This document shows, one piece after another, positions 2,403-4,241 of a DNA stretch of 4,241 nucleotides. The position numbers and the translations under genes are program-made. Each line of letters starts with the position of its first letter. The first letter of the stretch is position 1. The DNA comes from Qubevirus faecium, in sequence record FJ539132.1; one strand, given 5' to 3'. A model generated the notes under the pieces. The model worked only from the letters and a program-made list of their open reading frames with translations, did no database searches and was not told where the DNA came from.

Positions 2403-2422
2403 TAGCATGTCTAAGACAGCTA
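2403..2422 (+). promoter_or_regulatory. Coat-protein translational operator hairpin covering the replicase start codon (8-bp stem, bulged A2407, 3-nt loop UAA 2412-2414)
   Basis: Seen: UAGC-A-UGUC (2403-2411) pairs with GACAGCUA (2415-2422); the unpaired bulge A is the A of the AUG at 2407-2409. Recalled: the Qbeta operator has the same 8-bp stem, bulged A and 3-nt loop, and coat dimers bind it to repress replicase translation. Confidence 0.75.
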
Positions 2423-4137
2423 GTCACAGAAAGAAAATTACTCACCTATTGAGTAAGGTCGACATCGACTTCGAAGACGACATCCATATGTCTATCGCCA
2501 ATGATCTTTTTAAGGCCTTTGGCGTTGCACCACTTACGTCAGCGGAGCAGTGTATCAACACTCCGTTCCCTGACACTTCGATGACTGCTGATGCATTTCG
2601 CATCGCGTATCTGCGGTCAGAGATCCTTAGTAAGTATAGTGCGCACCCTCTCGGTATTGATACCGAAGCAGTAGCTTGGGAGAAGTTCCTAGCTGCTGAA
2701 GAGGGCTGTAGACAAACGAACGAACGACTGTCGCAGGCTAAGTACCATGACAATTCCATTTTGTCATGGGGCGAGCGTGTTATCCACACTGCTCGTCGAA
2801 AAATACTTAAGCTTATAGGCGAGTCTGTTCCGCTCGGGGATGTGGCGCTGCGCTGCCGATTTTCTGGCGGCGCGACGACCTCGGTTAACCGTTTACACGG
2901 CCACCCGTCGTGGAAGCATGCCTGTCCGCAGGATGTTACCAAACGCGCATTCAAATACCTACAAGCGTATAAAATGGCTTGTGGTGACATCGTAGACTTA
3001 CGTGTCAATGAGGTGCGCACTTCGAATAAAGCAGTCACTGTTCCAAAGAACAGTAAGACCGATCGTTGCATTGCCATCGAACCCGGATGGAATATGTTTT
3101 TCCAACTGGGTGTCGGTGCGGTGCTACGCGATAGGTTGCGCCTTTGGGGGATTGACCTTAATGATCAATCCATCAATCAGCGCCTCGCACGCGATGCGTC
3201 ACAGCTTGACCATTTGGCCACTGTTGACTTATCCGCAGCAAGTGATTCAATCAGCCTTAAGCTGGTGGAGTTACTACTACCGCCTGACTGGTTTGGCGTC
3301 CTGACCGATCTCCGATCGGATCAGGGTATCCTACCTGATGGGCGTGCCGTTACCTACGAGAAAATATCCTCCATGGGTAATGGCTACACTTTCGAGCTTG
3401 AGTCGCTCATATTTGCAGCGATCGCTCGGAGTGTGTGCGAGTTACTGGATCTTGACCAATCAACTGTCAGCGTGTACGGAGATGATATAATCATCGATTC
3501 CCGTGCTGCTGCAACCCTTATGGATGTGTTCGAGTACGTTGGGTTCACCCCTAACAGAAAGAAGACCTTTGTAAGTGGTCCCTTTAGAGAGTCGTGCGGA
3601 AAGCACTGGCACTCTGGGGTTGATGTAACGCCTTTTTACATACGCCGCCCAATACGTTGCCTAGTCGACATGATACTTGTTCTGAATAGTATCTATCGGT
3701 GGGGCACGATTGACGGCGTATGGGATCCTAGGGTGCTGCCCGTATACCAGAAGTACGTGAATATGCTGCCGAGAAATTGGCGGCGTAACACGATACCTGA
3801 TGGTTACGGAGACGGCGCTCTCGTCGGATTGGCTACAACGAATCCGTTTGTTATAGTCAAGAATTTCTCGAGACTATACCCGGTATTAGTTGAAGTCCAG
3901 AAGGACGTCAAGCGTCACGAGTACGGCAGTTATTTATATGCCATGCTACGCGACCGCGAGACACGTTACAATCCCTTCCTGCGTGTCGCAGATGGGACTG
4001 GGTTTGATGAAGCACCGCTAGCTACTAGCCTTCGTCGCAAGACAGGTCGGTACAAAGTGGCGTGGATTCAGGACAGTGCCTTCATCCGGCCCCCGTATTT
4101 TCTTACGGGACTTCCCGAGGTGAAGCTTGCTAGCTAG
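2407..4137 (+). CDS. RNA-dependent RNA polymerase, replicase beta subunit (576 aa)
   Basis: Seen: ATG 2407 with SD, TAG stop at 4135-4137; palm motifs in frame: motif A TVDLSAASDSI (3220-3252), motif B SSMGNGYTFELESLIF (3367-3414), motif C YGDD (3475-3486). Recalled: N-terminus MSKTAS and many blocks (GIDTEAVAWEKFLAAE, CRFSGGATT, NKAVTVPKNSKTDRCIAIEPGWNMFFQLG, YEKISSMGNGYTFELESLIFA, FRESCGKH, TIDGVWDPR, IPDGYGDGALVG) match Qbeta replicase. Confidence 0.96.
   Translation: MSKTASHRKKITHLLSKVDIDFEDDIHMSIANDLFKAFGVAPLTSAEQCINTPFPDTSMTADAFRIAYLRSEILSKYSAHPLGIDTEAVAWEKFLAAEEGCRQTNERLSQAKYHDNSILSWGERVIHTARRKILKLIGESVPLGDVALRCRFSGGATTSVNRLHGHPSWKHACPQDVTKRAFKYLQAYKMACGDIVDLRVNEVRTSNKAVTVPKNSKTDRCIAIEPGWNMFFQLGVGAVLRDRLRLWGIDLNDQSINQRLARDASQLDHLATVDLSAASDSISLKLVELLLPPDWFGVLTDLRSDQGILPDGRAVTYEKISSMGNGYTFELESLIFAAIARSVCELLDLDQSTVSVYGDDIIIDSRAAATLMDVFEYVGFTPNRKKTFVSGPFRESCGKHWHSGVDVTPFYIRRPIRCLVDMILVLNSIYRWGTIDGVWDPRVLPVYQKYVNMLPRNWRRNTIPDGYGDGALVGLATTNPFVIVKNFSRLYPVLVEVQKDVKRHEYGSYLYAMLRDRETRYNPFLRVADGTGFDEAPLATSLRRKTGRYKVAWIQDSAFIRPPYFLTGLPEVKLAS
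3475..3486 (+). other. RdRp catalytic motif C (YGDD) within the replicase
   Basis: Seen: TAC GGA GAT GAT in the replicase frame (codon offset 356 from ATG 2407). Established: YGDD is the catalytic motif of levivirus replicases. Confidence 0.9.
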
Positions 4138-4148
4138 ACACTAGCTAG
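4130..4148 (+). other. Perfect hairpin over the replicase stop codon: two copies of the self-complementary octamer CUAGCUAG separated by ACA
   Basis: Seen: CTAGCTAG at 4130-4137 and again at 4141-4148 with loop ACA (4138-4140), giving an 8-bp perfect stem; the replicase UAG (4135-4137) is in the 5' arm. Confidence 0.6.
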
Positions 4149-4241
4149 TAATGGGAAGGGGCTCATTTGAGGCCCCGGAAGGAGAAAGAAAGAAAACTCC
4201 CTCCTGAGAGGGTGGGCTCTGCTTTGCCCTCTCTCCTCCCA
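4138..4241 (+). promoter_or_regulatory. 3' untranslated region with hairpins (for example 4158-4176 GGGGCU...GGCCCC; 4199-4212 CCCUC/GAGGG) and terminal ...CUCUCCUCCCA
   Basis: Seen: stem-loops as listed; pyrimidine-rich tail ending CCCA. Recalled: Qbeta RNA ends ...GCUUUGCCCUCUCUCCUCCCA, almost identical to 4221-4241. Established: replicase initiates opposite the 3' CCC, and the terminal A is added non-templated. Confidence 0.75.

Follow-up and report, generated by a model that had tools for sequence, protein, structure and literature searches.

The last 115 nt of the window, by which we mean the whole 4,241-nt stretch of DNA that was analyzed, very probably form the canonical 3'-terminal domain of an allolevivirus (Qubevirus), in the SP/NL95-type form of genogroup IV. 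The predicted layout is a closed multi-helix junction. It contains three internal hairpins and is closed by the pairing ld IX, upon which hairpin R1 is stacked. The elements of the domain are as follows.

4127-4151, plus strand: hairpin R1, an 11-bp stem with an ACA loop at 4138-4140
4152-4156, plus strand: 5' strand of ld IX, UGGGA, pairing with 4237-4241
4158-4176, plus strand: first internal hairpin, U-type and GC-rich, with the one-base bulge G4171
4177-4204, plus strand: hairpin V, with the 12-nt A-rich loop AAAGAAAGAAAA at 4185-4196
4206-4235, plus strand: terminal hairpin U1, with the 5' arm GAGAGGGUGGG at 4206-4216 and the 3' arm CCCUCUCUC at 4227-4235
4237-4241, plus strand: 3' strand of ld IX, UCCCA, which includes the CCA-3' end at 4239-4241

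The same closed layout was predicted when we folded the 3' untranslated regions (UTRs) of the window and of Qbeta. For Qbeta, the domain (its U hairpins, ld IX, V, and the pseudoknot of U1) is reportedly described in Beekwilder 1995 and in Klovins and van Duin 1999. Both the genome and its 3' element have been described before, and the observation is an ordinary one. Its main value is a correct annotation. The published RNA-phage genome in the window is complete, and both of its termini are intact.

The window is a complete genogroup IV genome

The window is the full genome of a genogroup IV allolevivirus (Qubevirus faecium). It has the expected length of about 4.2 kb and the allolevivirus gene order of A2, coat, A1 read-through, and replicase.

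52-1374: A2 (maturation/lysis) ORF
1395-1793: coat ORF, ending at a leaky UGA
to 2387: A1 read-through extension
2407-4137: replicase beta subunit ORF, with the stop codon UAG at 4135-4137

The encoded proteins are exact matches to GenBank ACT66749-52 of Qubevirus faecium (ACT66749 for maturation, ACT66750 for coat, and ACT66752 for replicase). These entries come just before the accessions of FJ539133 (strain HB-P24). The genome therefore belongs to the Friedman 2009 strain set. Judging from this accession order and from the strain list in PMC6963950, it is most probably that of strain HB-P22. The best matches in the phage collection, by genome nucleotide identity, were HB-P24 (83.8%), NL95 (83.3%), SP (82.3%), and FI (79.8%). 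Qbeta matched the window genome in patches only.

Folding and covariation support the 3'-terminal domain

We folded the last 118 nt of 12 genomes separately. All of them gave the same architecture, and the consensus fold agreed with it. Covariation was tested on a 13-sequence genogroup IV alignment in which partial wild contigs were included. In this alignment, 96.5% of the cells of the named structure were paired, and 10 pairs showed double changes. None of 500 shuffles reached the observed covariation values, and slid controls were 42 to 52% paired. The double changes were found in R1 (3 of 11 pairs), in hairpin 4158-4176 (4 of 8 pairs), and in hairpin V (3 of 7 pairs). Within genogroup IV, ld IX and U1 were without variation.

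The 3' UTR of the window itself folds barely better than shuffled sequence (z = -1.28; Qbeta, z = -7.0). Its domain is predicted to be 7 to 9 kcal/mol less stable than those of the genogroup IV relatives, because of the bulge in hairpin 4158-4176 and the base U4230. An Rfam scan of the whole window, with E-values up to 1, matched no family. The pseudoknot, the UGCUU loop, and the elements U1, V, and ld IX are all covered in earlier work, in which ld IX is reported for all Leviviridae (PMC3561173).

R1, ld IX, and the internal hairpins

Folding gave R1 in the window as well as in every genogroup IV relative, with pair probabilities of 0.73 to 1.0. Its stem holds the replicase stop codon (UAG, 4135-4137), and R1 is predicted to stack directly on ld IX. 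The pair 4131/4147 is U-A in the window and in two wild relatives from Logan assemblies (L013 and L022), G-C in HB-P24 and FI, and A-U in NL95, SP, BR1, and BR8. Base 4131 lies within the last replicase codons. An equivalent of R1 has been described in Qbeta (PMC8880383).

The pairing of UGGGA with UCCCA in ld IX was present in the minimum-free-energy (MFE) and consensus folds of all genomes, with pair probabilities of 0.65 to 0.995. Both strands are invariant in all 12 genomes, and ld IX is therefore without covariation support. Instead, the predicted helix is backed by the folding calculations and by the Qbeta structure. In the cryo-EM model of Qbeta, the last six nucleotides pair with 4124-4129 (UGGGAG) and stack on R1 (PMC8880383). 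The original prediction had the terminal domain begin at 4158. UGGGA at 4152-4156, the partner of the terminal UCCCA, sits just outside that start.

Two upstream hairpins had been proposed, at 4158-4176 and 4199-4212. The first was borne out, since it was predicted in the window and in all 11 relatives and half of its pairs are doubly changed within genogroup IV. Two further pairs covary across genogroups. The hairpin has 19 nt and the G4171 bulge in the window. In the two wild relatives, it has 18 nt and is unbulged and perfectly paired: GGGGCUC-AUUU-GAGUCCC in L013 (4146-4163) and GGGGCUC-AAUU-GGGCCCC in L022 (near the 3' end). The G4171 bulge could be a compensated wild indel or a one-base error in the deposited genome. 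We rejected the second hairpin, in which CCCUC (4199-4203) would pair with GAGGG (4208-4212). Its pair probability was 0.0006, and forcing it cost 4.7 kcal/mol and destroyed both V and U1. The bases in question belong to V (3' arm) and to U1 (5' arm).

An A-rich hairpin V has been described for MS2, Qbeta, SP, and AP205 (PMC3561173). Hairpin V of the window likewise carries an A-rich loop, in which GAGAAAGAAAG is invariant across genogroup IV. This A-rich loop would be a plausible contact for Hfq or a protein.

Identity to Qbeta at the terminus and along the genome

The Qbeta reference for the terminal comparison was AB971354. The last 21 nt of the window (GCTTTGCCCTCTCTCCTCCCA, 4221-4241) are identical to its 3' terminus, in agreement with the original prediction, and the exact identity reaches 24 nt (4218-4241). 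The genome does end in CCCA. The further claim that all of 4158-4241 is nearly identical to Qbeta held for 4206-4241 (88.9%) but not for the upstream part. There, in 4138-4205 (39.7%), the sequence is about 40% identical and the fold alone is conserved. The protein-coding regions have diverged from Qbeta, as had been noted, with identities of 49% for A2, 70% for coat, 49% for the A1 extension, and 59% for replicase.

Comparison of 3' UTRs had been suggested as a check, and in an alignment of 12 genomes from two species, the terminus was conserved among the Qbeta-like genomes. The final nucleotides CTCCTCCCA (4233-4241) are invariant in 12 of 12 complete genomes from these two species, and TCTGCTTTGCCC is the same in all but one of the 12, the exception being HL4-9. 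All genogroup IV genomes share at least 23 of the 24 terminal bases with Qbeta. The window also has the terminal C/U-rich tract and CCA-3' end of an allolevivirus, ending in ...UCCUCCCA.

The terminal 24-nt run far exceeds what the adjacent non-coding sequence gives in comparison with Qbeta. In the whole genome, it is the tied third-longest exact run shared with Qbeta. The other long runs are 30 nt at 1377-1406, 25 nt at 3709-3733, and 24 nt at 3088-3111. The longest of them, CTTTGGGTCAATTTGATCATGGCAAAATTA at 1377-1406, covers the A2-coat intergenic region and the coat start codon, and it overlaps the 'replicase binding region s' that is annotated in the SP record. The Qbeta-identical runs at 3088-3111 and 3709-3733 (24 to 25 nt) fall inside the replicase gene. 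The first 14 nt of the former (3088-3101) are the longest invariant run across the 12-genome alignment.

Terminal hairpin U1 and base U4230

The window has the terminal hairpin with the UGCUU loop motif. Its loop is CUCUGCUUUG, and the loop interval 4217-4226 contains CUGCUUUG. U1 covaries between genogroups III and IV at two pairs of the consensus fold. The original prediction had placed a G-rich stretch, GGGUGGG, at 4211-4217 and had suggested that it could pair with the C/U-rich tail. The stretch lies at 4210-4216 instead, as part of the U1 5' arm. It does pair with C/U-rich sequence, in the U1 stem with 4227-4235, but not with the final CCCA.

One base of the 3' arm sets the window apart from its relatives.

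4230, plus strand: U4230, a Qbeta-like, strain-specific base

Base 4230 is U in the window and A in the five other complete genogroup IV genomes (HB-P24, NL95, SP, BR1, and BR8). At the U1 pair 4213/4230, genogroup IV has U-A, genogroup III has A-U or G.U, and the window is the sole genome with U.U. Because of U4230, the U1 register in the window is ambiguous. In the family register, 4208-4216 pair with 4227-4235, with a U4213xU4230 mismatch. In a register slipped by 2 nt, 4206-4212 pair with 4227-4233 in seven perfect pairs (GAGAGGG/CCCUCUC). U4230 breaks a covarying U1 pair, and the slipped helix compensates for it. The calculated values for U1 are as follows.

Family register, A at 4230: -14.6 kcal/mol
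Family register, U at 4230: -10.4 kcal/mol
Slipped register: -11.0 kcal/mol
Ensemble probability: slipped, 0.75; family, 0.21

By these calculations, the slipped register is predicted to be favored in the window strain.

U4230 may be a genuine natural variant, in which case U1 of this strain would run in the two-base-slipped register. It is somewhat unlikely that U4230 is instead an artefact, arising from a primer, clone, or reverse-transcription error, and that the true HB-P22-type RNA has CCCACUC. An error would agree with the fact that none of the five other complete genogroup IV genomes has U at this site. U4230 is also the only broken cell at the covarying U1 pair, at a cost of about 4 kcal/mol in the family register. 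Moreover, the same strain has the odd bulge in hairpin 4158-4176, which is absent from two close wild relatives, and both genogroups were primer-walked on clones in the source study (PMC3499819, describing the method of its reference 3). However, HB-P24, BR1, and BR8 come from the same study and carry A at 4230. HL4-9, also from that study, has a unique change within the last 21 nt, which argues that the termini were actually read. Such differences within the terminal 21 nt among same-study genomes argue against a shared primer-derived end. In addition, A4207 and A4209 permit the perfect 7-bp slipped helix that uses U4230. Whether U4230 is real or not, only one base is affected.

A slipped U1, if true, would have a 14-nt loop and would leave three unpaired bases before ld IX instead of one. 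If U4230 is real, the helix would be able to slide along the (GA)n/(CU)n-like repeats of its two arms, and initiation and maturation-protein binding would tolerate the other register, given that the loop and the CCA tail are kept. U4230 would thus be a small natural test of how far the terminal hairpin can vary.

We looked for an HB-P22-like 3' terminus in wild contigs. The five contigs L013, L014, L021, L022, and L023 all stop at least 33 nt short of it. A viral-contig scan for this terminus returned the SP reference only. A metagenome scan with a 20-base pattern gave no match, and one with a 16-base pattern, which is too short, gave only chance matches in unrelated contigs. The wild contigs are 96 to 99% identical to the window at the replicase 3' end, so this lineage circulates in recently sequenced samples (L021, SRR17497125; L023, SRR17509918; L013/L014, SRR24138264/5; L022, SRR30895314). 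L013 has a 3-nt deletion near the replicase C terminus (575 aa).

Predicted long-range pseudoknot and bridging helix

The original prediction had also raised the possibility that the G-rich stretch takes part in long-range interactions. Long-range interactions were predicted, but the partner at the 3' end is the U1 loop and not the G-rich stretch. The strands concerned are as follows.

3027-3034, plus strand: pseudoknot 5' strand UAAAGCAG, at replicase ORF codons N-K-A-V, about 1.2 kb upstream of the 3' end
4219-4226, plus strand: pseudoknot 3' strand, the U1 loop CUGCUUUG, containing the pan-levivirus UGCUU
3036-3043, plus strand: long-distance helix 5' strand CACUGUUC, starting one base past the pseudoknot site
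4071-4078, plus strand: long-distance helix 3' strand GGACAGUG, near the end of the replicase ORF

Segments 3027-3034 and 4219-4226 can form eight pairs, including one G.U, with a duplex energy of -9.2 kcal/mol. This complementarity would correspond to the long-range pseudoknot of Qbeta. Klovins & van Duin 1999, to which PMC3561173 and PMC4200798 refer, reportedly found Qbeta to depend on that pseudoknot, and Qbeta is the only phage in which it has been experimentally verified (PMC3561173).

Conservation at both sites is consistent with this assignment. The U1 loop segment CUGCUUUG is identical in 11 of the 12 genomes. Upstream, every genome examined carries AAUAAAGCAGU at the corresponding codons of the replicase gene; in the complete genomes, its distance from the 3' end is 1212 or 1243 nt. 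It lies in AATAAAGCAGT (3025-3035). Three runs of 11 nt, this one among them, are invariant across the 12 aligned genomes, and only a 14-nt run is longer. Three consecutive synonymous third positions are invariant at the 5' site, against a background of 17%, and such a run of three is the tied longest in the replicase gene. The pseudoknot cells were 99% paired, compared with 24 to 49% when the partner was slid. Because both strands are invariant, the pseudoknot has no covariation support. Seven sites in the window could make eight contiguous pairs with the U1 loop. HL4-9 (L011, 4205-4212) has CUGCUUAG in place of CUGCUUUG, and in the 12 genomes this is the sole variation in that segment of the U1 loop. 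Because the upstream strand of HL4-9 is the usual one, the substitution would break one pair.

The adjoining helix, 8 bp between 3036-3043 and 4071-4078, spans about 1 kb within the replicase ORF. It was found by inspection of aligned columns; RNAduplex on long segments gave long imperfect duplexes. The helix is paired in all 12 genomes, whereas slid controls were 13 to 54% paired. Two pairs are compensatory between genogroups III and IV, changing from C-G to U-A and from U.G to A-U. In Qbeta coordinates, the helix joins 2981-2988 with 4049-4056. The "thousand-nucleotide" interaction of Klovins et al. 1998, to which PMC4200798 and PMC4176380 refer, is probably the same helix.

The sequence elements of the whole Qbeta long-range RNA network, for ld IX, the U1 pseudoknot, and the bridging helix of about 1 kb, are present in a genogroup IV strain. 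The shared network supports extending the Qbeta model of replication and packaging to its sister species.

Proposed mechanism and the conservation of the terminus

The steps of the mechanism proposed here are transferred from Qbeta by homology. In Qbeta, the plus strand is recognized through ribosomal protein S1, which binds the internal S and M sites, and long-distance interactions bring the 3' end to the active site (PMC4200798, PMC4176380, PMC10610835). Only CCA-3' is read directly at initiation (PMC4200798, PMC4176380, PMC10610835). Both Qbeta strands end in CCA-3', and the replicase initiates de novo by placing GTP across from the penultimate C; the last A is non-templated and stacks on the first base pair (PMC4200798). 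This mechanism of initiation is known from crystal structures of the replicase (PMC4200798). In the Qbeta virion, the maturation protein binds U1, and the junction formed by the 3' UTR links the RNA to the capsid (PMC8880383). Both roles of the domain, in minus-strand initiation by the holoenzyme and in binding of the maturation protein through U1, are known for Qbeta only (PMC4200798, PMC8880383).

By analogy, the replicase holoenzyme would bind the internal S and M sites of the window RNA via ribosomal protein S1. The U1 loop CUGCUUUG would form the pseudoknot with UAAAGCAG at 3027-3034. The pseudoknot and the helix 3036-3043/4071-4078 would then dock the 3' domain beside the region of the M site and so bring the 3' end to the active site. 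Opening of ld IX would free CCA-3' (4239-4241), where synthesis could begin de novo with GTP across from the penultimate C, while the last A, being non-templated, would stack on the first pair. Hfq reportedly assists in unpairing the 3' end (Schuppli et al. 1997). Once the RNA is packaged, the maturation protein A2 would hold this U1 hairpin in the virion.

The original prediction had attributed the conserved terminus to purifying selection on the site of replicase recognition and initiation. The strong constraint on the terminal sequence stands, but work on Qbeta indicates that the plus strand is not recognized through that sequence. In our analysis, the near-invariance of 4206-4241 seems best explained by stacked, overlapping constraints and not by one sequence that the replicase recognizes. 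The constraints on the last ~36 nt are the CCA-3' initiation platform, ld IX, the U1 stem, the U1-loop pseudoknot, and the binding of U1 by the maturation protein (PMC3561173, PMC8880383). The complement of these ~36 nt is also the 5' end of the minus strand. With so many simultaneous roles, this segment would hardly change from genogroup III to genogroup IV, whereas elsewhere in the UTR only the fold is kept.

It is improbable that the terminal ~21 nt are conserved as a sequence-specific replicase recognition site. The terminal run is near-invariant in the 12 genomes, as such a site would be, and CCA-3' is truly read in the active site (PMC4200798). However, plus-strand recognition in Qbeta is attributed to the S1-bound S and M sites and to the long-distance interactions, and the initiation crystal structure used only a short CCA-3' template, with CC paired to two GTP analogues (PMC4200798, PMC4176380, PMC10610835). 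In addition, strands of helices or of the pseudoknot make up most of the 24 conserved nucleotides. We also considered, as very unlikely, that the 3' end was gained by recombination from a Qbeta-like phage of genogroup III. Such an origin would account for the identity of the last 24 nt to Qbeta, including one site at which the window is unlike its genogroup IV relatives. However, this signal is a single nucleotide, and the bases just upstream, C4217 and GGGUGGG, are those of genogroup IV (Qbeta has A and AGGGGG). The UTR is also of the SP type, without the extra Qbeta helix. No further genogroup III-specific bases were seen upstream of 4218 in any HB-P22-lineage sequence, and we rejected this origin.

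It is extremely unlikely that the region is tRNA-like, in the manner of the CCA-terminated structures of some plant RNA viruses. The CCA-3' terminus and the presence of EF-Tu and EF-Ts in the replicase (PMC4200798) would be in keeping with such a structure. However, ARAGORN found no tRNA-like gene, and Rfam gave no match with E-values up to 1, and a viral tRNA-like structure was rejected by both searches. Moreover, the fold has three internal hairpins closed by ld IX with R1 stacked, and is not a cloverleaf mimic. Overlapping constraints on a shared terminal domain, as set out above, are the reading that we prefer.

Comparison with related phages

The window shares with Qbeta (Qubevirus durum, genogroup III) the last 24 nt, the UGGGA/UCCCA closure, the U1 loop CUGCUUUG, and UAAAGCAG at the homologous replicase codons together with the adjoining long-distance helix. 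In both, moreover, ld IX is followed by a GC-rich hairpin, and the loop of hairpin V is A-rich. However, Qbeta and genogroup III have an extra short helix between V and U1 (ACUC-UUAC-GAGU in Qbeta), which makes a five-way junction. This helix is absent from the window and from all genogroup IV genomes because of a 4-nt gap at the loop of the Qbeta helix. The UTR of the window is therefore of the SP type and not of the Qbeta type, despite the identical last 24 nt. In addition, ld IX has up to 6 to 7 bp in Qbeta and 5 bp in the window, and the 3' UTR has 96 nt in Qbeta and 104 nt in the window.

The genogroup IV phages SP, NL95, HB-P24, BR1, and BR8 share with the window the 104-nt UTR, the same architecture, and the V and U1 loops, with UTR identities of 81 to 93%. 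The window differs from them in having U4230 rather than A, with the predicted slipped U1, and in the bulge of hairpin 4158-4176.

MS2 (Emesvirus) differs from the window in genus and in the details of its replicase host factors. The U1 stem sequences of the two are unrelated, and the MS2 tail is ACCACCCA, compared with UCCUCCCA in the window. Even so, MS2 shares a terminal U1 hairpin with the UGCUU loop, followed by a short C-rich tail ending in CCCA (PMC3561173), and its U1 loop has CUGCUUGG.
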